Positions 25,507 through 37,733 of a stretch of DNA of 64,000 nt are shown here, one piece after another (positions within the stretch are counted from its first letter, which is position 1; each line of letters begins with the position of its first letter). The notes under the pieces are model-generated. The model was not told the origin of the DNA and did no database searches. It saw only the letters and a list, made by a program, of their open reading frames with translations. The stretch is from an uncultured Nitrososphaerales archaeon (lineage in GTDB: Archaea > Thermoproteota > Nitrososphaeria > Nitrososphaerales > Nitrososphaeraceae): positions 960,001 through 1,024,000 of the forward strand of contig CAVOHZ010000010.1 in the NCBI GenBank assembly GCA_963695855.1, given 5' to 3'. The position numbers and the translations under genes were made by a program.

Positions 25507-27495
25507 GTGAAATACAGCGTAGGTTTCGCGGGATGGCAAAAGATAACAGTTCCATCTAATAAACAAGAAAAAGAAGGAAAAGATATAATTGAAAATCTTT
25601 CCAAGACAACTTTTAAATCAAAAGATTATTTATGGCATTATTCTCAATTTTTTAACTTTGTACAAATTGATTTTCTCGATATTTTCAAGGATAAGAAGAT
25701 ATTGTCAGATTTACGTAGATTTAGACAAGCCCTTAGAGAATGGGCAGAATTTGGTCCTACTGATTTTAAATTCTCTATAATAGTCCCAAAACAATATATA
25801 GATATTAATAATGATAACCATGACAAGCTAGAAAGATTTCTTCAAGAACTTGAACCAATTCAAGAAAAGATTATTGCGATAGTGTTAAAAGTGCCATCGA
25901 CTTTTACTTTAGCAAAAGATAGAGAATGGTTGAATACGCTCTTAAAATTTTGTAAACAGTTTAAATATTCAATTGCAATAGAATTTGAACATCAATCTTG
26001 GTATCAAGACCTTACCTACAACATTTTAAAAAAGTACAATACTTCGCTGATATGGTCTGATCGACATAAATATCATGTAATTACATCCAATTTTTTGTAT
26101 TTACAGATAAGCGAAAATCTGGAAAAGTGGATACAAAAGTTAAAAGAAAAAGAGAAAGAGATTGAAAAAGAAAATAATAAAAGTACAAACTCTTATTCTA
26201 ATACTGATACAGGTTATTTTGTAGGTATAGTACTAGAAAATAATAATATCTCAAAAATAAATTTTATACAGAAATTATTAAATTCAGGGCAGGTTCAAAG
26301 CGTCAATAATTATAATAATCCGAAAAATGAGATCAAAGCATGGAAAGGTAAAGCGATTTTGCATGTTGACACTAACTCGTTTTATTCGTCATGTGAAGAA
26401 ATAAGAGATCCATCTTTAAAAGGAAAACCTCATGCTGTCATAATGACCGATGAAGAAAATAATAATATTACAAAAGGTGTGGTAGCAACCTGTTCATATG
26501 AGGCTAAGAGATTGGGAGTACAGTCTGCAATGCCTTTATACAAAGCTTTAAACCTATGTCCTAATTTGATTCTACGAGCTGTGGACAAAAGATACTATAA
26601 TATGATCTCAGAAAAAGTAATGGAAATACTGGAAAGATATGCAGATACTTTGGAACAAGCTAGTATAGATGAAGCATATTTGGACTGTACAAGAAAGATT
26701 TCTTCAATGAATATGACCGTAGAGTGGTATTCTAAAGAGATTAAAAAGAAAATTCGAGACGAATGCCAGGGGTTGTTAACCTCTGTAGGTGTAGCAACTA
26801 CAAAATCTGCTGCGAAAATAGCATCCGATTATCAAAAACCTGATGGTCTAACCATTGTTCATTTTGATGAATTGAAAAAATTTCTTGAACCATTGGAGGT
26901 TGAAAGAATTTCGGGGATTGGAAGTAAGACACAAAAAATCTTAAGAGAAGAGTTGAAAATTAAAACCATAGGCGAATTGGCAAGAGCCAATGTTCAGGTC
27001 TTGATAGAAAGATTTGGAAGGAAAACAGGAACGTGGATGTGGCAAGTGGCTAATGGAGAAGATAATGATAAGGTCATTCCAAGAGGAGAACATGTTTCCT
27101 TGAGTAATGAATCTACACTGGAGAATTTTACTCAAGACAGAGAGGAAATAAAAACGGTTTTACACGACATAGTTGATGAGCTGTATGATAGAATTTCTAG
27201 TTATGGTTATGAGTATAGAACTGTAGGAATAAAACTCGTTAGGACCGATTTTAGCATTGAAACAAGAGAAACATCTTATAATAGCTACAAAAATGATAGA
27301 AAAAGTATTGAGTCAGCTATCGATAAATTATTGGATAGATTCAATTTAACAAAAAATGAAGATAACAATGAAAACGAATTAGCAACCAAGAAAATACTAC
27401 TTATAAGGAAAGTTGGACTGAGAGTATCCAATTTGATTAGATTTCAAAATAAAATGAAAATTAACTCTCAAAGGACACTGTTTGATTACATTTAA
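25507..27495 (+). CDS. dinB: Fusion: N-terminal DUF72-like domain + Y-family DNA polymerase IV
   Basis: C-half HVDTNSFY, CSYEAK..GV.SAMP, SIDEAYLD, KPDG, GIGSKT, little finger; N-half VGFAGW, YSQFFNFVQID, FKFS, AIEFEHQSW, FLYL; GAGGAGGGG upstream of GTG. Confidence 0.88.
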   Translation: MKYSVGFAGWQKITVPSNKQEKEGKDIIENLSKTTFKSKDYLWHYSQFFNFVQIDFLDIFKDKKILSDLRRFRQALREWAEFGPTDFKFSIIVPKQYIDINNDNHDKLERFLQELEPIQEKIIAIVLKVPSTFTLAKDREWLNTLLKFCKQFKYSIAIEFEHQSWYQDLTYNILKKYNTSLIWSDRHKYHVITSNFLYLQISENLEKWIQKLKEKEKEIEKENNKSTNSYSNTDTGYFVGIVLENNNISKINFIQKLLNSGQVQSVNNYNNPKNEIKAWKGKAILHVDTNSFYSSCEEIRDPSLKGKPHAVIMTDEENNNITKGVVATCSYEAKRLGVQSAMPLYKALNLCPNLILRAVDKRYYNMISEKVMEILERYADTLEQASIDEAYLDCTRKISSMNMTVEWYSKEIKKKIRDECQGLLTSVGVATTKSAAKIASDYQKPDGLTIVHFDELKKFLEPLEVERISGIGSKTQKILREELKIKTIGELARANVQVLIERFGRKTGTWMWQVANGEDNDKVIPRGEHVSLSNESTLENFTQDREEIKTVLHDIVDELYDRISSYGYEYRTVGIKLVRTDFSIETRETSYNSYKNDRKSIESAIDKLLDRFNLTKNEDNNENELATKKILLIRKVGLRVSNLIRFQNKMKINSQRTLFDYI

Positions 27496-27781: not shown

Positions 27782-30700
27782 ATGTACAATTTCTGGATGA
27801 TAAAGTCATTATTTCTTATCTTTATGTTAGTTTTATCATTAATTCCTTTTTCTTCAGTGTACGGTCAAGAGTCTCGTAATACTATTATACATTCAGCAAT
27901 AGATGGTGATGACAACCCTGTGCCTAACGGAGGTGTCACGACATCGACTTCTATAACTTTCAATTATAGTGAACCTATAGACAACCAACCACAGGTTGAT
28001 TTGTTCAAGTGTCGATTAGATGGAACAGGAATGGACCCATTTGTTCCCTGTACTAATTTTGTACCTCCAGGGTTCTTTTTCAATACAAAAACCTACACTT
28101 TGCTGCCATTGGGAATGCATACATTTGAGGTGATTGCATGTTTGACTCCAGGTCCTCAGGAGATTTGTGATGAAACACCTGCTACTTGGACATGGTTTAT
28201 AGTTGATTTTGATACCTTCATAACCTCAGCGATTGATGGACAGAATAATACAGTATCCAATTCTGGGACATCTTTTTCTGATAAGATAACGTTTACATTT
28301 TCTGACAATGACTTGAACCAGCCTATAACTGTAGATGGCTTTGAGTGTTCTCTGGATGGTTCAATGTTTGCAGAATGTGATGATCCTGCATCCCAAACAT
28401 ATTCAGACCTTACTGCAGGTGCCCATCACTTTGAGGTAAGGTCCTATGTCTTTGATAATGGGGAGGAGCCTACCAAAATATACGATCAAACTCCAGCTAC
28501 ATGGGACTGGACAGTTATTACAGATACTGTCATAGATACTGCGATAGACGGAACCACTGCCAATATACCAAACGGGGTACTCTGTTTCTCGGATATGATC
28601 ACCTTTACCTATCATGCCACAATAGTAGATGACGGAGGACCAGGAACAATAACAGTAACACCAGATGGCTTTGAGTGTTCTCTGGATGGTTCAATGTTTG
28701 CAGAATGTGATGATCCTGCATCCCAAACATATTCAGACCTTACTGCAGGTGCCCATCACTTTGAGGTAAGGTCCTATGTCTTTGATAATGGGGAGGAGCC
28801 TACCAAAATATACGATCAAACTCCAGCTACATGGGACTGGACAGTTATTACAGATACTGTCATAGATACTGCGATAGACGGAACCACTGCCAATATACCA
28901 AACGGGGGTACCTCTGTCTCGGATATGATCACCTTTACCTATCATGCCACAATAGTAGATGACGGAGGACCAGGAACAATAACAGTAACACCAGATGGCT
29001 TTGAGTGTTCTCTGGATGGTTCAATGTTTGCAGAATGTGATGATCCTGCATCCCAAACATATTCAGACCTTACTGCAGGTGCCCATCACTTTGAGGTAAG
29101 GTCCTATGTCTTTGATAATGGGGAGGAGCCTACCAAAATATACGATCAAACTCCAGCTACATGGGACTGGACAGTTATTACAGATACTGTCATAGATACT
29201 GCGATAGACGGAACCACTGCCAATATACCAAACGGGGGTACCTCTGTCTCGGATATGATCACCTTTACCTATCATGCCACAATAGTAGATGACGGAGGAC
29301 CAGGAACAATAACAGTAACACCAGATGGCTTTGAGTGTTCTCTGGATGGTTCAATGTTTGCAGAATGTGATGATCCTGCATCCCAAACATATTCAGACCT
29401 TACTGCAGGTGCCCATCACTTTGAGGTAAGGTCCTATGTCTTTGATAATGGGGAGGAGCCTACCAAAATATACGATCAAACTCCACTACATGGGACTGGA
29501 CAGTTATTACAGATACTGTCATAGATACTGCGATAGACGGAACCACTGCCAATATACCAAACGGGGGTACTTCTGTCTCGGATATGATCACCTTTACCTA
29601 TCATGCCACAATAGTAGATGACGGAGGACCAGGAACAATAACAGTAACACCAGATGGCTTTGAGTGTTCTCTGGATGGTTCAATGTTTGCAGAATGTGAT
29701 GATCCTGCATCCCAAACATATTCAGACCTTACTGCAGGTGCCCATCACTTTGAGGTAAGGTCCTATGTCTTTGATAATGGGGAGGAGCCTACCAAAATAT
29801 ACGATCAAACTCCAGCTACATGGGACTGGACAGTTATTACAGATACTGTCATAGATACTGCGATAGACGGAACCACTGCCAATATACCAAACGGGGGTAC
29901 CTCTGTCTCGGATATGATCACCTTTACCTATCATGCCACAATAGTAGATGACGGAGGACCAGGAACAATAACAGTAACACCAGATGGCTTTGAGTGTTCT
30001 CTGGATGGTTCAATGTTTGCAGAATGTGATGATCCTGCATCCCAAACATATTCAGACCTTACTGCAGGTGCCCATCACTTTGAGGTAAGGTCCTATGTCT
30101 TTGATAATGGGGAGGAGCCTACCAAAATATACGATCAAACTCCAGCTACATGGGACTGGACAGTTATTACAGATACTGTCATAGATACTGCGATAGACGG
30201 AACCACTGCCAATATACCAAACGGGGATACTCTGTCTCGGATATGATCACCTTTACCTATCATGCCACAATAGTAGATGACGGAGGACCAGGAACAATAA
30301 CAGTAACACCAGATGGCTTTGAGTGTTCTCTGGATGGTTCAATGTTTGCAGAATGTGATGATCCTGCATCCCAAACATATTCAGACCTTACTGCAGGTGC
30401 CCATCACTTTGAGGTAAGGTCCTATGTCTTTGATAATGGGGAGGAGCCTACCAAAATATACGATCAAACTCCAGCTACATGGGACTGGACAGTTATTACA
30501 GATACTGTCATAGATGATGCTATCGATGGGGACAACGATCAAGTTTTGAATGGAGGTTCTACCTCCTCTAATGATATCACCTTTACCTATCATGCCACAA
30601 TAGTAGATGACGGAGGACCAGGAACAATAACAGTAACACCAGATGGCTTTGAATGCGAACTGGATGGCAATGGTTCAATGTTTGCAGAATGTGATAGTCT

Positions 30701-33700
30701 TACTAGTCAATCTTATATAGATCTTACTGCAGGTGCCCATCACTTTGAGGTAAGGTCCTATGTGCTTGACGATGAAATGAACAAGATATATGATTCTTCA
30801 CCTGCAACCTTCAATTGGAACATAAAGCAGTTCGATACAGTTATTAATTCAGCAATAGATGGTAACGGTGCCAATGTTACAAACGGCGGGTCCACTCCAT
30901 CTAACAACATAACATTTACTTTTTCAGCTATTGAGATTAATACTCTCCAATTAATGGGTAGCACTTTACAAATTTATACCGAAGATAATGAACAAATAGC
31001 AACACCATTTAATTCGTCCGAGATTGAAAATGATAATTCTAAAGAAATTCCTAATTCTCTATCTTCATTATTTAAATTAGTGATTCCACTGTTTACTTAT
31101 TTGAATTTCTCACCATTTTATACAACTCAATCGCTGGTGTCACCAGCCATTGCTCAGGAGATTTTTAATGTTCAACCAGGACTTCAGTGTATGTTAGATA
31201 ATGGACCATTCGAGGACTGTTCAACTGGTACTAAGAACTATCTTAACTTGTCTGCAGGTCAACATGTCTTTAAGGTTAGATGGAACATTAGTGAAACCGA
31301 ATTCAATCCATCTCCAGCTAACTTCACTTGGACAGTAGAACCAAATACCATTATAGACTCGGCAGTAGATGGAAATGGTGCGAATGTTACAAACGGCGGG
31401 TCTACAAATTCAAGCTCTATAAATTTCACATATCATGCAGAGGTTTCTGAAGGACCAATAATAGTAGATGGTTTTGAATGTTCTATTGATGGTGCTATGT
31501 TTGAAGACTGTACTTCGGGTGCCACCAAATCCTACACTAACCTTACTGCAGGTATCCACACGTTTGCAGTAAAATGGGTCAATGATGGATATGAGGCACA
31601 AACTCCAGCTAACTTCACTTGGACAGTAGAACCAAATACCATTATAGACTCGGCAGTAGATGGAAATGGTGCGAATGTTACAAACGGCGGGTCTACAAAT
31701 TCAAGCTCTATAAATTTCACATATCATGCAGAGGTTTCTGAAGGACCAATAATAGTAGATGGTTTTGAATGTTCTATTGACAGTGGATTATTTACTGAAT
31801 GTAACAGCGGCACTCAATCATATTCTGGTCTTCCAGCAGGTGTGCATACGTTTGCAGTAAAATGGGTCAATAATGACCATGAAGATCAAACACCTGCAAC
31901 ATGGAGATGGACCATTTTACCCGATACTGTTATAGATGCGGCTGTTGACGGAGTCGACGCAAACGCAGATCCAATTCCAAACGGCGGATCCACTTTATCA
32001 CATTCCATACTATTTTCATTTTCTGCCCAATTTAATGGTCTTCCAATTATGGTTGATGGCTTTGAGTGTTCTCTTGATGATATGACGTTTGCTGATTGTC
32101 CAATAGACAATCAAATTTTGTTCGAGGATTTATCACTTGGTCCACACACATTTGAAGTAAGAGCATTTATCGTTGAAAATGGAAATAGATTTTATGACCC
32201 AACACCAGCAACATGGACGTGGAACATTCTTCTGCCAAATACCGTTATAGATTCTGCAATTGACGGAAACGGTGATGATGTTTCAGATGGCGGATCCACT
32301 TTATCAGATTCCATAGAATTTGCGTTTTCTGCAGCGTTAGATGGTGTAACAGTTGATGTTGATGGTTTTGAGTGTTCTCTTGATAATGCAGAGTTTGTTG
32401 ACTGTTCTAGTCCCTTTTTGTTCGAGGGTTTGTCAGTTGGTCCACACACATTTGAAGTAGTAGCATTTATCGTTGTAGGTGAAACTAGATTACCCGATCC
32501 ATCGCCAGCCACTTTTAGCTGGATTATAGATGAAGCTGGAGGCGGCGGAGGTGGAGGCGGAGGTGGAGGCGGCGGAGCTGCAGGTGGCGGCGGAGGTGGA
32601 GGCGGCGGAGCTGCAGGTGGCGGCGGAGCTGCAGGTGGCGGCGGAGCTGCAGGTGGCGGCGGAGCTGCAGGTGGCGGCGGAGCTGCAGGTGGCGGCGGAG
32701 CTGCAGGTGGCGGCGGAGCTGCAGGTGGCGGCGGAGCTGCAGGTGGCGGCGGAGCTGCAGGTGGCGGCGGAGGCGGCGGAGGCGGCGGAGGCGGCGGAGG
32801 CGGCGGAGCCGGTGCAGGAGCTGGAGCCGGTGCAGGAGCTGGAGCCGGTGCAGGAGCTGGAGCCGGTGCAGGAGCTGGAGCCGGTGGTGGACAAGTAGGC
32901 AATGAGGCAGCTGGAGCCCCTGCCATAGGTTTCACTCCATTATCTGCAAGTTCAGGAAAGGATCTCAATGTTAAGATAGTTAAAACATTCGTGCTATCTG
33001 ACGAATGTAAAAAATTGTTTGGTCAATCTGTTGCCTCACAATATATCTTTACTATAAAACAGAATGTAACCGCGGATCCTTTTGTCATATCAGATAAGTA
33101 CAAGGAAGAGGGAGCTGAAATTACCAAGGTATATAACCTGACCGCTTTCAAAGGATTCTCTGCGTATATCGATGATAATGTACTTTTGCAAAAGATAAAA
33201 AGTGACCCGAGATTAGAATTATTTGAAAACAAGTATGGACTTTCTGGCCAAAATTCCCTTTCCTCTACCACCAATGCAACCACGATAAATACAACAGATG
33301 TTAAGGGTAATCAGACAATCAAAGATCAAAAAGAAAATGACTGTAAAATAGATTATGATAAAATACATTACCTTGCACAGAATTTCACAGCAAGAGAAGA
33401 AAACTTTACAGCCGTAAAAACGAATATTACAGCCGTAAAAACGAATATTACAGCCGTAAAAACGAATATTACAAAAGTCCCAGATATAGATATTGCAATT
33501 ATTGATACTGGAATAGATCTACTGCATCCAGATCTAAATATATATAAAGCAATAAATTTTGTCAATGATAGTCTGTCTGCAAATGATGATGTAGGACATG
33601 GCACTCATATTGCCGGCATAATTGCTGCTAAAAAGAATTCGCAAGGAATTGTTGGCATAGTACCTGGGGCAAAACTATGGGCTCTAAAAGTCTGTGACTA

Positions 33701-34607
33701 TAGAGGTGTATGTAATATGGCTGACGTATTGGATGCGATACAATATGTGACTGACCATAAAGATGAAATAGATGTGGTCAATCTCAGTGTTGGTTTTCCA
33801 AATTCAGAATTACTAAACTCAGCAATAAATGCATCAGTTCAACAGGGAATAACATATGTAGTTGCAGCAGGTAACAAGGGACTTGATTCTATCAATTCGA
33901 GTCCTGCAAATAATCCCAATGTAATTACTGTTTCAGCAATAGGAGACAGTGATGGGAGATGTGGAGGACAAGGACCAATTCTAGAAGATAATCTCATTGA
34001 CGATACATTTGCTAATTTCAGTAATTATGGTTCTGATATTGATATAGCTGCTCCAGGTGTACAAATATTTTCTACATATACACAAGAGGGATATGCGGTA
34101 GATACAGGTACAAGCATGGCTGCTCCTCATGTTGCAGGTTTGGCGGCTAAAATAAAAATGGATAATCCTGATGCCACACCACAAGAAGTTAAGAAAATCA
34201 TCTTATCATCTTCCATTGAGCCTGGAAAGATCTGCGCGAATGATAATAAAGGATACTTTAAAGGTGATAAAGACGCATATCATGAACCATTGCTTTACCT
34301 AAGCTCATTTTTGGCGCCAAAAATAGAATTACCTCCTGCAAACGCTTCCGTACAAAATGAGAATTCACCTTTGTTGAATTCTATGAATAACACATCTGAA
34401 AAGTCAGTACAAAAAAATGTTACAAAAATAGATAATAAAAACATAAAACTGGACAGCAACTCTACAACACCAGCGATTGTAGATCCATATAAATTGATTG
34501 TAGATCCATATAAAGTGTTTGTAGATCCATCTAAACTGGACATCAACTCTACCAAACCAGCCATTGCAGATTCAATTCAAAATTCTACTACAAAAAATAG
34601 ACAATAA
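27782..34607 (+). CDS. Giant secreted S8 (subtilisin-like) protease with Ig-like repeats, ~2275 aa if two single-base deletions (~29486, ~30227) are corrected
   Basis: ORFs 27782, 29584 and 30150 continue the same repeat; signal peptide VYG-QE; I9-like propeptide; triad IIDTG / HGTHIAG / GTSMAAPHVAG; AAGN. Confidence 0.85.
28333..30640 (+). repeat. Seven near-identical 330-bp coding tandem repeats (110-aa Ig/FnIII-like module), last unit partly diverged
   Basis: agatggcttt recurs at 28333, 28663, 28993, 29323, 29652, 29982, 30311 and 30641. Confidence 0.95.
31312..31780 (+). repeat. Second coding duplication with 291-bp period
   Basis: ctccagctaacttcacttggacagtagaaccaaatacc... at 31312 and 31603. 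Confidence 0.9.
32535..32891 (+). repeat. GC-rich low-complexity repeats encoding poly-Gly, (AAGGGG)n and (GA)n
   Basis: 18-bp units gctgcaggtggcggcgga and gccggtgcaggagctgga, 9-bp ggcggcgga. Confidence 0.95.
33406..33473 (+). repeat. 21-bp x3 coding repeat (TAVKTNI)
   Basis: ttacagccgtaaaaacgaata repeated three times. Confidence 0.9.
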
Positions 34608-34784: not shown

Positions 34785-36164
34785 CTAGGCAGTAGTTGCT
34801 TTCTTTTTTGACTTTAGAATTTCTTGCATTACCTGCTCCATGTAATCCTGAACATTTTCCTCTGAAAGAGAAGCAGTTTCTATGCCAGTCTTTTCTTCTA
34901 GCTCTTTTTCTTCTTTGTCTACCACTTCCTTTACATCTTTTACCGCTCTCTGAAGTTCTGCCGTCATTTGAGCAGTACCAATACTTCCAAGGAGATTGGA
35001 ATTGTTCTTTGTTTTTTCCCTAATTTTCTCTCTCAATGTTATGTTATGGGAAAGTGAAAGAGCTGATGAATAAAGTCCAAAATTGACTAGATATGTACAT
35101 ACTATTATGAATGAAACTGTTGGTAATGCATATGGGGGATAAGGGGCAATGATAAGTGTTGATTGTGTTACTGTAAAAAACATTATAAGTCCGTTGGCAG
35201 TAACAATCAAGTATTTTCTAATCGGATTATTATGTTCTAGTTTGCTAGCTACCTTCCAAAAAGAATATCCAAAAATAATACCACTAAATGCAGTACCCAA
35301 ACCTTCAAACATATAGTATAGTATTAAACTCTCATCAGTGTCAGGAACTTCAATTATATTGAAAGAATCTAATGATGTCGACAAAAATAAAATAAAGGAA
35401 CTTACTAAGCCAACTAATAGTCTTATACGTTGAATTTTTTCTGTATATTGAGACAATAGCATGTAGGATCCAACCAAAAGCAAAATCAATGATATTCCCA
35501 ATAGATACTTATAATATTCATAAAACTGGTCAAAAATATTACTTTCGATATCCGGATAAACCACTTTCATCATAGGTGTTATCCATGATGGCTTTTTTAT
35601 GATTATGGCATTTTCTCCGATGTATACGACAAAAATACTTACTGACAAAATCATAAATCCCAGTCCATAAAAAAAAATTACCGGCGAATTTCTCTTTGAA
35701 AAATACCAGAATAGAAACTTTAGAGCCAGCAAAAACAATATTGACGAACCTATTAGTGCATTAATATTCTGAGCCAGTAATAAATTTGCCAATGAATATT
35801 CAGAAAGAAACAGAATCATTAGTACAACTAAAACTAGATTTCCGATCAAAATGTAACTCGAATATCTAGCAATTTTTGATAAATTGAACAAATATTTGGA
35901 TTTTGATAAAAGCGCTTTATTGTCTTTTTCTGCAAATTTCTGTAAATATATTTGTGCAAATATTGCTACACAACAAATTAAAATAAAAGTAAAGATTCCA
36001 AATGGCGTCTTAATTTGTTCACTTATAAAATCAGGTATTCTGCCTATTTCTAGATCAATTATTAAACAAGCATTTATGATAATTATTATAAAATAATTCT
36101 TTTTGAGGTCATAAAAGGAAGCTAGTAAAAATTTGTTGAAAGGCAAAAATCTAGGATTATTCAA
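34785..36164 (-). CDS. Polytopic membrane protein (~10 TM) with charged C-terminal helical tail
   Basis: Many hydrophobic segments; tail LREKIR...LLGSIGTAQMTAELQRAV...YMEQVMQEI; no catalytic motif recognised. Confidence 0.8.
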   Translation of the reverse strand: MNNPRFLPFNKFLLASFYDLKKNYFIIIIINACLIIDLEIGRIPDFISEQIKTPFGIFTFILICCVAIFAQIYLQKFAEKDNKALLSKSKYLFNLSKIARYSSYILIGNLVLVVLMILFLSEYSLANLLLAQNINALIGSSILFLLALKFLFWYFSKRNSPVIFFYGLGFMILSVSIFVVYIGENAIIIKKPSWITPMMKVVYPDIESNIFDQFYEYYKYLLGISLILLLVGSYMLLSQYTEKIQRIRLLVGLVSSFILFLSTSLDSFNIIEVPDTDESLILYYMFEGLGTAFSGIIFGYSFWKVASKLEHNNPIRKYLIVTANGLIMFFTVTQSTLIIAPYPPYALPTVSFIIVCTYLVNFGLYSSALSLSHNITLREKIREKTKNNSNLLGSIGTAQMTAELQRAVKDVKEVVDKEEKELEEKTGIETASLSEENVQDYMEQVMQEILKSKKKATTA

Positions 36165-36312
36165 GTAGATTATCTGCTAGTATTTGAATAACTAAATTTT
36201 TATATTTAATTAATTTTGTCATGCTTTATCACGCAAGTTCAAAAAAATTAAAAATATGTGAAAATCAATGAAATGATTCTATACCAATATTGATATCAAG
36301 TATTTGTATAAT

Positions 36313-36501
36313 TTATCTATCGTGTAATATTTCTCCTTGCATTTCCAATTGATCAGTCATATTTGATACTTTATTGTCGGTCATGTTATTGTTCTCATCT
36401 GACTGGGCCATTGCTACAGATAACGGAGATGTCTGTACTATTCCAAATGAGAATGCTATTGATGCTATTAGAAATGCCAAAATGAATAATTTTTTATTCA
36501 T
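36313..36501 (-). CDS. Small secreted peptide precursor
   Basis: MNKK + hydrophobic core + AMA-QS cleavage site; 30-aa mature part with two NMT sequons. Confidence 0.75.
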   Translation of the reverse strand: MNKKLFILAFLIASIAFSFGIVQTSPLSVAMAQSDENNNMTDNKVSNMTDQLEMQGEILHDR

Positions 36502-37190
36502 GCTAGCATTATAGTTTGGATCTTTATATTGTTTTTGGAATTATATTATGTGTATAGAGGTTCCATTTACATAAACAATAAATTGTAATGATATCAATAT
36601 TACTCTATATTATCTTTAGCCAAATTTTAGTATGATGTTGTTATGTATGAACTGAGTAATTAAACTAGAATTATTCATTGTCCCGAAATGTTAAACCAAA
36701 TTTCAAGCGAACGAAAACTAAATAAGATTATAAAATCTCAGGTGCTGTAAAATATGAAAAATGAATCAGATTAGTAGGAAGGAATATTTGATATAAACTA
36801 TCAAAATGTCTATAGATGAATAAAAAATACGAGGTACTTATTGATTATAGGATAGGAAAAAGAATAAAGAACTTTCATGAAGACAAACGAACAGATTAAT
36901 AAAATTTCATTTCTTTCTAATGGATAAAATGCTCAATTCAAGCATCTCGAAAATAGAGACACTGTTCCAAATTCTATTTCTTTATTTTGTCCCGAATTTT
37001 CCCTACATAAATATTCAAATTCCTAAAAAACAGAAAAGTAATCGTTTTCCAAAGAGAAAATTCGTCTAGGTGACAGAAAGAAACGAATTTCAAAATGAAC
37101 TACAGAGTATAAAAGGATCTTTATTCTGTGTAATAATTGAGTAAAGAGAACTTTTTATCCCTCAATCACCCCATTTAGCTAACAAATACT

Positions 37191-37733
37191 ATGAAAGAAG
37201 AACATCGTGGGAAACCATATGTCTTGAAAATATTTCAATTAATCTTTGGTATAATGTTGGTTATAAATTCAGGTCTAATTCTAACTAATCCAATACATGC
37301 TTCTAAATCTCTTGTTTTATTACTTGTTATTACTCTGATAATTTCTGGAATGGAGAGACTTGGAATTGGAATTATTGCACACTGGATTGATAAACGTTCT
37401 AGGATAACAAATATTGGTCTTGGAATAATAGCAATAATTTTATCTATACTTGCTATCACATACCCTGGAGTTACTATATCATTGGTAATAATGCTTATGG
37501 CATTTTCCTTATTGATAGTTGGAATTTCTAGAATCATTTTAGGTTTTAATGATTCAAGCAGGAACAAATTGAGTCGATATATGATCGTCGGTACTGGAAT
37601 CATATCTGTAGTAATAGGTGGAATGATATTTGGATCTACGTTATTTGGGATTGAATTAGTTTCTATGATCTTGGGAACAGCAGTAATGATAAATGGAATT
37701 CAAAGTATAGTTTCATCAATATCATCGAGATGA
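37191..37733 (+). CDS. HdeD/DUF308 family membrane protein (paralog of 7947..8504)
   Basis: GMERLGIG / GISRIILG repeats, multiple TM segments. Confidence 0.75.
   Translation: MKEEHRGKPYVLKIFQLIFGIMLVINSGLILTNPIHASKSLVLLLVITLIISGMERLGIGIIAHWIDKRSRITNIGLGIIAIILSILAITYPGVTISLVIMLMAFSLLIVGISRIILGFNDSSRNKLSRYMIVGTGIISVVIGGMIFGSTLFGIELVSMILGTAVMINGIQSIVSSISSR

Follow-up and report, generated by a model that had tools for sequence, protein, structure and literature searches.

A secreted peptide gene paired with a receptor-like membrane protein gene: a candidate peptide and sensor module in Nitrososphaeraceae

Gene pair in the window

The DNA analysed here (hereafter the window) is a 64,000-nucleotide stretch from an uncultured Nitrososphaerales archaeon of the family Nitrososphaeraceae (GenBank assembly GCA_963695855.1, contig CAVOHZ010000010.1, forward-strand positions 960,001 to 1,024,000); the genome carrying it is referred to as G000. 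The window holds a small gene for a predicted secreted prepro-peptide and, directly downstream of it, a gene for a receptor-like protein with 10 transmembrane (TM) helices, and this pair converges with the genes of an S8 subtilase (Table 1). The pair is conserved across whole clades, its peptides share one architecture, its membrane domain occurs in sensor-type fusions, and signalling proteins are encoded beside it in relatives. Here we weigh these observations as traces of a candidate peptide-ligand and sensor module.

A first-pass annotation, made from the letters of the DNA alone, had described a 62-amino-acid gene with a signal peptide ending AMA-QS, an acidic spacer with two NMT sequons and the C-terminus MQGEILHDR, lying upstream of and co-oriented with the membrane gene at a distance of 148 bp. 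We recovered each of these features. The small open reading frame (ORF) has a hydrophobic N-terminus that ends in SVAMA followed by QS, and the predicted mature part comprises 30 residues and is acidic (7 D/E against 2 K/R). Searches of Pfam and NCBIfam at E ≤ 0.01 returned no family for this peptide or for the membrane protein. As an estimate of chance occurrence, we counted 15,574 small ORFs (35-130 amino acids) in G000 and found a hydrophobic N-terminus together with at least two sequons in 161. A loose G-x-[IV]-[SL] tail is present in 6 of these 161, and only the window ORF has the look of the peptide family. Two other export signals were considered by eye and set aside: a class III (pilin-type) signal, because the hydrophobic stretch is not preceded by a K/R-G/A cut site, and a Tat signal, because the aligned peptides have no twin arginine.

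Table 1. Positions of the paired genes, their parts and linked genes (window coordinates unless a contig or locus is named)
Feature	Position	Strand	Remarks and basis
Prepro-peptide gene	36313..36501	-	62 amino acids, ATG start, stop codon within span; ORF list
Predicted Sec signal peptide, residues 1-32	36406..36501	-	ends SVAMA before Q; alignment; cleavage site placed by the -3/-1 rule
Acidic spacer with two N-M-T sequons	36340..36405	-	N39 at 36379-36387, N47 at 36355-36363; putative glycosylation sites
C-terminal core QGEILHDR, residues 55-62	36316..36339	-	contains invariant Gly56; alignment
148-bp spacer between the genes	36165..36312	-	T5 and T7 runs at about 36240-36254; A/T-rich TATA-like stretch at about 36198-36212; by eye
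TATA-like box	36522..36534	-	A/T-rich, ~26 nt upstream of the peptide ATG; by eye
Membrane protein ORF	34785..36164	-	459 amino acids, TTG start; co-oriented with the peptide ORF
10-TM domain, residues 1-366 (3 N-terminal helices and a 7-helix bundle)	35067..36164	-	hydropathy, AlphaFold, structure scan
Conserved cytoplasmic helical tail, residues 367-459, and stop codon	34785..35066	-	AlphaFold, alignment
Convergent secreted S8 subtilase, three ORFs	27782-29524, 29584-30246, 30150-34607	+	Pfam, repeats, signal peptide
KaiC-cyclase and MinD-like genes, example	L123 2014-3594, 5535-6455	+	flank a peptide-receptor pair
~240-amino-acid protein genes beside three of the four other G000 paralogues (L002, L003, L005)	C10:1168717-1169430, C4:10324-11109, C4:67415-68143	+, +, -	

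Architecture of the peptide family

Alignment of 23 peptides revealed that N39 and G56 are invariant (G56 in 23/23) and that Q33, T41, N47 and T49 are conserved in at least 90% of sequences, while [A/S] at position -1 followed by Q marks the predicted cleavage site in 22 of the 23. Each relative carries between two and seven N-x-T sequons. The commonest tail is G-x-I/V-S-G followed by 3-14 residues, and the lineage of the window has GEILH[D/N]R instead. A conserved C-terminal motif of the G-x-I type, which the first-pass annotation had proposed to look for, is conserved in the alignment.

The tail stays constant among close relatives as the rest of the peptide changes. GEILHDR is identical in all six close variants (those of the window, of G048 and of four metagenome loci with receptors at 94-97% identity to the window receptor), whereas their signal peptides and spacers vary; the next relative, G026, has GEILHNR. 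Likewise, GMISRKD is identical in 3/3 relatives at ~51% receptor identity that differ in spacer, number of spacer repeats and signal peptide. The peptide reading frame is retained down to ~25% receptor identity. Some tails contain pairs of Cys residues, for instance ..ISGCADRGC and ..ISGCDTRC. An archaeosortase-type sorting signal (PGF-CTERM and the like) was not found in the peptides, as no hydrophobic stretch follows G-x-I and the end comes 3-14 residues on.

Membrane protein family

Both a hydropathy scan and an AlphaFold model (predicted local distance difference test, pLDDT, 93.3; predicted template-modelling score, pTM, 0.91) give the membrane protein 10 TM helices with the N- and C-termini inside, followed by a charged helical tail of ~95 residues, as the first-pass annotation had described it. 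The tail helices span residues 353-392, 397-426 and 435-458 in the model, and the outer loops are small (12, 7, 30, 15 and 7 residues). Near-invariant positions in an alignment of 120 family members include D37 (TM1), Y342-P343-P344 (last outer loop) and, within the tail, R378, G396, Y441 and E448; the same alignment contains no conserved His, Cys or Ser.

The earlier statement that the protein has no enzyme or transporter motif also stands, as no transporter or enzyme fold stood out in Foldseek or in an exhaustive structural scan. Foldseek found no match in the PDB at E ≤ 0.001 (best E 0.026), and the family profile found none among PDB sequences (best E 0.13). In the exhaustive scan, residues ~120-380 (helices 4-10) align with seven-transmembrane (7TM) proteins at Z 8.4-11.6 among the 50 matches listed, which are mainly microbial rhodopsins and G-protein-coupled receptors; the best is 3x3b_A (Z 11.6, root-mean-square deviation 4.6, 230 residues). 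For helical bundles, values of Z under ~13 can reflect a common arrangement. The membrane protein may accordingly be called 7TM-receptor-like and nothing beyond that. No Lys falls in the invariant or near-invariant columns of the 120 sequences that could stand for the retinal-binding Lys of microbial rhodopsins.

Independent support for the term receptor-like comes from relatives in which the same domain forms the N-terminal part of histidine kinases. A histidine-kinase H-box follows the membrane domain in L020, and HisKA and HATPase_c follow it in P0130, P0201 and P0223; the kinase-fused forms occupy two separate places on the family tree. To judge from these fusions, the domain serves as a kinase input module in some family members.

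The family is large and, among the genomes sampled, confined to the Nitrososphaeraceae. HMMER searches over 1.84 billion representatives returned 1028 clusters (50% identity) at E ≤ 0.001 and 641 at E ≤ 1e-10, and the source names that we saw for members were all 'hypothetical protein' from Nitrososphaeraceae. The family is present in 75/81 Nitrososphaeraceae genomes, in as many as 20 copies; sampling across the class showed it in 4/4 Nitrososphaeraceae genomes and in 0/147 genomes of eleven other families. G000 has five paralogues, and other small secreted ORFs of the (GNMT)n type occur in the family, so that the first-pass annotation was right to call such membrane proteins and NMT-rich small proteins multicopy.

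Conservation of the pair

To follow the pairing, we located family genes by an alignment profile in 115 loci from 81 genomes and scanned the DNA upstream of them for small ORFs in the same orientation that have a hydrophobic N-terminus and contain at least two sequons. Such an ORF precedes 23 of the 109 family genes that have at least 350 bp of upstream DNA, and the distance from peptide stop to receptor start ranges from -29 to 184 bp. On a FastTree phylogeny of 111 domain sequences, which has several long branches and includes related, non-independent genomes, the peptide is found in 15/15 members of one clade (support 97) and in 7/7 members of a neighbouring one (support 100) that also holds one row of unknown peptide state. 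Both lie inside a 29-row clade (support 100) together with two kinase-fused and four peptide-less members. Among the scored rows outside the two clades, 0/83 have the peptide ORF. In metagenomes, where loci were found by scanning contigs with a single membrane protein as query, the peptide is present in 6/6 related loci, one of them cut by the contig end. The conserved adjacency suggested by the first-pass annotation therefore holds in the two clades (22/22) and in these metagenome relatives, and does not extend to the rest of the family.

Pairs were found in 6 of the 18 genera sampled. Five genomes (G045, G066, G067, G069 and G009) have two pairs each, one per clade and with different tails. 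An unscored row, the second gene of G009:C63 at the end of its locus, has a peptide-profile match just upstream (G009:C63:25680-25874). Because this second gene also has a peptide match, G009:C63 holds two tail-to-tail pairs. In this locus (L016/L122, G009:C63:22300-25874), which has one pair of each clade, an S8 protease gene and a GH5 cellulase-like gene lie just upstream.

We also searched the 81 genomes with a profile of the peptides, and 22 of the 23 best matches adjoin a family gene. As the profile was built from linked ORFs, the new information is that only one strong match lies elsewhere. Weaker matches are another matter: 0/11 examined, G047:C64 among them, adjoin a family gene, and the ten others are small secreted ORFs of the (GNMT)n type without the core motif. 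Small secreted ORFs of this kind (L155-L164, for instance G000:C8:550604-550846 on the minus strand) have (G)N-M/A-T repeats, lack the G-x-I core and are unlinked to the membrane family. Small secreted proteins rich in sequons are thus a common feature of these archaea, and the core motif and the linkage to the membrane gene coincide. The unpublished genomes G077 and G035 are counted in the 81-genome tallies (family range, genera and peptide-profile search). From G077 come a tree row whose state is unknown (L024) and a weaker peptide match (L155), and no claim hinges on G077 or G035 alone.

S8 subtilase and neighbouring genes

In the window, the largest subtilase ORF (1485 amino acids) matches PF00082 (Peptidase_S8) at 1.3e-48 (166.2 bits; the family cut-off is 21.8), and a gap of 177 bp separates its end from the stop of the convergent membrane gene. 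The first-pass annotation had the pair converging on a secreted S8 protease; the convergence and the protease family hold, but this ORF itself has no signal peptide, which is found instead at the start of the most upstream ORF. The three subtilase ORFs (580, 220 and 1485 amino acids) share near-identical tandem repeats of ~110 residues, and around 32530-32900 there is a long Gly/Ala tract. Given the common repeats and the signal peptide on the first ORF, the three are probably one gene for a giant secreted protease whose frame is broken, or was mis-assembled, inside the repeats.

We surveyed the flanks of 21 peptide-linked loci and scanned 50 of their 160 neighbour ORFs (17 and 33) against Pfam. 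Several of these loci are on short contigs, so that an absent neighbour means little. An S8 protease gene lies beside the pair in 5/21 loci (the window, G048, G009, G005 and G022), and G000 has only four S8 loci in its 3.55 Mb. The proteases of G005 and G022 score 426 and 414 bits against that of the window and at most 247 bits against the other two intact ones of G000, which makes them best-hit orthologues of the window protease; the G009 protease is ambiguous (295 against 289 bits). The orthologous S8 genes come from two genera. In G005 and G022 the gene order is S8 protease, KaiC-cyclase, peptide, receptor and MinD, all on the same strand. The same 10/21 loci contain genes for a MinD/ParA-like ATPase (AAA_31) and for a fusion of a KaiC ATPase with a class III nucleotidyl cyclase. 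Receiver-domain genes adjoin the receptor in L132 and L129 and one is nearby in L121, and a gene for a soluble HisKA/HATPase_c kinase directly follows the receptor in L127. A TPR gene was seen in L121 only. The 50 scanned ORFs include no maturation enzyme of the AgrB/ComQ type and no ABC exporter, C39 peptidase or modification enzyme.

Other neighbours were recorded as well. In one genus (L010-L014 and L027), a conserved membrane protein of ~234-250 amino acids without a Pfam match is encoded just upstream of the peptide gene (for instance L116 2704-3456, plus strand), and the receptor gene is closely followed by a DUF6659 gene. In the window, a DUF308/HdeD-like membrane protein (37191-37733, plus strand; PF03729 at 2.3e-11) is encoded upstream of the peptide gene, as it is in G048, and a Y-family DNA polymerase (26095-27495, plus strand; IMS, 5.3e-42) upstream of the subtilase gene.

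Expression and promoter signals

Four soil and rhizosphere metatranscriptome runs, held as contigs, contain pieces 90-99% like the window. In X3, three pieces cover 36375-36485, inside the small ORF, with a summed depth of 25, compared with a depth of 3-5 for pieces of the receptor gene. Pieces in X10 and X11 span the 3' end of the peptide ORF and run into the spacer, and one X3 piece crosses the receptor start. Libraries of this kind may contain DNA, and the depth of contigs is a crude gauge; these contigs therefore weakly suggest expression in relatives. Stretches of the window that no RNA contig covers carry no information. As for expression of the small ORF, whose absence the first-pass annotation had listed as refuting its proposal, the evidence is weak: its pieces do occur in RNA libraries, as contigs of relatives that may derive from DNA. 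From the T-runs and A/T-rich stretches in Table 1, and leaning on the usual geometry of archaeal promoters, we infer an archaeal terminator in the spacer, a promoter for the peptide gene and a second promoter before the receptor gene.

Interpretation of the gene pair

We think it possible, if somewhat short of probable, that the two genes form a cognate peptide-ligand and sensor module in which the peptide is a self-made signal whose core is recognised by the receptor; we take such a signal to be autocrine or of the quorum type. The 62-residue product would be exported via Sec and cut after SVAMA, and its acidic spacer would be N-glycosylated at the N-x-T sites. The neighbouring secreted S8 protease might first cut the C-terminal G-x-I core (QGEILHDR in the window) free of the spacer, and the adjacent 10-TM protein would then recognise this core at its outer face. 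The 7-helix bundle could relay the signal through a helix continuous with TM10 to the cytoplasmic helical tail, and the tail may engage soluble transducers such as those encoded beside the pair in other genera (KaiC-cyclase and MinD/ParA-like proteins, histidine kinases and receivers). We favour a self-made signal because the peptide is predicted to be cleaved and has no anchor, because the spacer varies while the core is constant, because an S8 protease recurs beside the pair, and because some genomes hold several pairs with different tails.

A number of observations weigh against this interpretation. Cleavage, glycosylation, binding, processing and output are all steps that we infer. Only five receptor residues are specific to the peptide-linked clades (I26, S160, F170, K191 and Y220), with no clustering on the outer face, and the 7TM likeness, at Z ≤ 11.6, is below the decisive level for helical bundles. 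A Pfam scan of the window membrane protein returned neither a kinase nor any other output domain. The KaiC-cyclase and MinD-like genes of G000 map to a different contig (C3:303285-307748). The RNA-library pieces come from relatives and may be DNA carry-over, and the ratio of nonsynonymous to synonymous polymorphism (pN/pS) of the peptide ORF is 0.39-1.11, which points to weak overall constraint and is a crude estimate, too rough to bear on coding either way. One strong peptide match, L152 (G047:C64:3328-3522), whose tail is GSISAAA, is followed by 560 bp of remaining contig without a family gene. Finally, 36/111 tree rows have a gene for a secreted protein of ~240 amino acids within 600 bp, and a globular protein of that size is unlikely to be a pheromone. 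Two side observations concern these loci: the 560 bp downstream of L152 contain an other-frame piece like the ..ISGVEDPF tails, and the locus may be decayed; and a transposase-like fragment (C3:304804-305109) lies between the KaiC-cyclase and MinD-like genes of G000. When the mature peptide (residues 33-62) was modelled in complex with receptor residues 1-400, the score was 0.00; this prediction had no controls and counts neither way.

The presence of the ~240-residue protein leads to a different account, in which the peptide is a permanent, glycosylated extracytoplasmic subunit or co-receptor, docked by its G-x-I core on the 10-TM protein under the S-layer, where it would aid the sensing of an external cue or control activity; the ~240-residue protein would do the same job elsewhere in the family. 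The gene for this protein is the divergent upstream gene in 27 of the 36 cases. Another small secreted protein is encoded beside 6/111 rows, so that linkage to an exported partner extends to 64/111 family genes in total, and no partner was seen in the examined DNA of the other 47. The ~240-residue protein has no Pfam match, and its model (pLDDT 90.5) consists of helix plus a beta-sandwich domain with weak beta-sandwich matches only (template-modelling score ≤ 0.4) in structural searches. Since it would hardly be a pheromone, the usual partner in the family may be a bound extracytoplasmic subunit, and the whole family may use such a partner. A G-x-I-S-G motif common to clades and genera fits a shared docking site better than it fits pherotype specificity, and the small number of receptor residues specific to the peptide-linked clades agrees with this. 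On the other hand, the predicted cleaved peptide has no membrane anchor; the variable spacer with its constant core, the recurring S8 protease and the presence of several pairs with different tails in one genome are more in keeping with a released signal; and the ~240-residue partner lacks the G-x-I-S-G tail, so that a common docking mode is no more than putative. We regard a permanent subunit as rather unlikely, while giving it serious weight.

It is also conceivable that the peptide is an antimicrobial or other exported product and that the membrane protein serves in its immunity, export or maturation. In some bacteriocin loci, too, a gene for a small peptide exported by Sec adjoins one for a polytopic membrane protein, and the Cys pairs in some tails and the fast evolution of the peptide would suit such a product. 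Against this, the same membrane domain is found as histidine-kinase input and the neighbours are signalling proteins, the scanned neighbours include none of the exporters, peptidases or modification enzymes listed above, the membrane protein has no conserved catalytic residues, and the mature peptide of the window is acidic, unlike most pore-forming peptides. Or the small ORF might be no functional partner at all, only an unrelated (GNMT)n-type protein or a non-expressed ORF travelling with the membrane gene: NxT-rich small secreted ORFs are common and usually lie away from family genes (all 11 weaker matches do), and overall constraint on the ORF is weak. Yet the co-oriented adjacency in all 22 clade members, in six genera and with gaps of -29 to 184 bp, the invariant motif confined to linked peptides, and the retention of the frame down to ~25% receptor identity speak for a partner. 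Given the kinase fusions and the complete linkage in the two clades, both accounts fit poorly; we judge the bacteriocin-type one quite improbable, and an ORF without function in the pair more improbable still.

The peptide-ligand and sensor module thus remains our preferred, tentative reading, and the first-pass proposal of a peptide pheromone, receptor and convertase survives in part: adjacency, motif, fold and the recurring orthologous S8 protease speak for it in the two clades, and it does not carry over to the family as a whole, where other clades have the ~240-residue partner. We consider it doubtful, and on balance unlikely, that this is the first ribosomally encoded archaeal peptide-pheromone system, with a glycosylated pro-peptide, an S8 'convertase', a new 3+7-TM receptor and a KaiC-cyclase/MinD or kinase output. 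If it were, the several orthogonal peptide/receptor pairs per genome could underlie kin- or density-dependent behaviour in soil ammonia oxidisers.

Comparison with known systems

Archaeal communication is little known, and the pair offers a concrete, testable case in ecologically important soil nitrifiers, as the short conserved core can be synthesised and the candidate cognate membrane protein has a confident model. Our work also defines a large, lineage-specific and unannotated family of sensor-like membrane proteins, most of them linked to genes for secreted partners, and ties this family to the unusual KaiC-cyclase/MinD gene pair. A literature search that left most subscription journals outside its range found no published description of this gene pair, of the membrane family or of the KaiC-cyclase/MinD link in Nitrososphaeraceae. 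The main text of a census of archaeal two-component systems, so far as accessible, does not mention this domain (PMC5847659); its supplements, which cover kinase architectures, could list fused forms. Archaeal quorum-sensing mechanisms are described as poorly characterized in the accessible part of a 2026 study of Haloferax (PMC13464002), and a 2024 study of marine ammonia oxidisers, in its accessible part, rests on homology to bacterial systems (PMC11442133).

The resemblances that follow to the bacterial systems ComX-ComP, AgrD-AgrC, Phr, LuxP-LuxQ, TorT-TorS and MgrB-PhoQ are drawn by description. ComX-ComP of Bacillus and AgrD-AgrC of Staphylococcus are alike in having a precursor-peptide gene directly upstream of, and co-oriented with, the gene for a polytopic receptor; relatives of the present receptor likewise carry HisKA/HATPase_c, and several distinct pairs can occur in one genome. 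Unlike these systems, the archaeal pair has a predicted Sec signal peptide and N-x-T sequons and shows no sequence relation to them, the window receptor has 10 TM helices (3+7) and no kinase, and AgrB or ComQ is missing from the neighbours scanned. A class II bacteriocin was rejected as a model, since the signal peptide is of the Sec type and not a double-glycine leader, and no ABC/C39 protein occurs among the scanned neighbours.

The Phr pro-peptides of the Rap-Phr systems of Bacillus resemble the present peptides in their build, in which a Sec signal peptide is followed by a spacer and then by a short C-terminal core that is conserved. Proteases of the subtilisin family release Phr peptides outside the cell, and the peptides are re-imported and bind cytoplasmic TPR receptors. 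The S8 genes beside some of the pairs may parallel this release, a likeness suggested by gene linkage; unlike in Phr systems, the linked gene encodes a membrane protein, and the lone TPR gene belongs to a single locus.

As a helical membrane bundle N-terminal to histidine kinases, the membrane domain also resembles HisKA_7TM (PF16927) and other 7TM sensor input domains of these kinases. Among named clusters of the ESM Atlas, HisKA_7TM comes nearest (score 0.82, a lead only). Identity with HisKA_7TM was rejected, as its profile has no match in the membrane protein at E ≤ 1 or in G000 at E ≤ 10, and the present domain differs in having three extra N-terminal helices and a conserved cytoplasmic tail of its own.

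In LuxP-LuxQ, TorT-TorS and MgrB-PhoQ, the gene of a membrane sensor has beside it a gene for an extracytoplasmic partner or small regulator that works on the sensor's outer face, a likeness that fits the family-wide pattern of ~240-residue partners. Unlike in those systems, the partner in the two peptide clades is a probably glycosylated peptide of 30-55 amino acids with no known fold. We file the pair as an archaeal module in which a membrane sensor from a new protein family goes with a peptide or partner.

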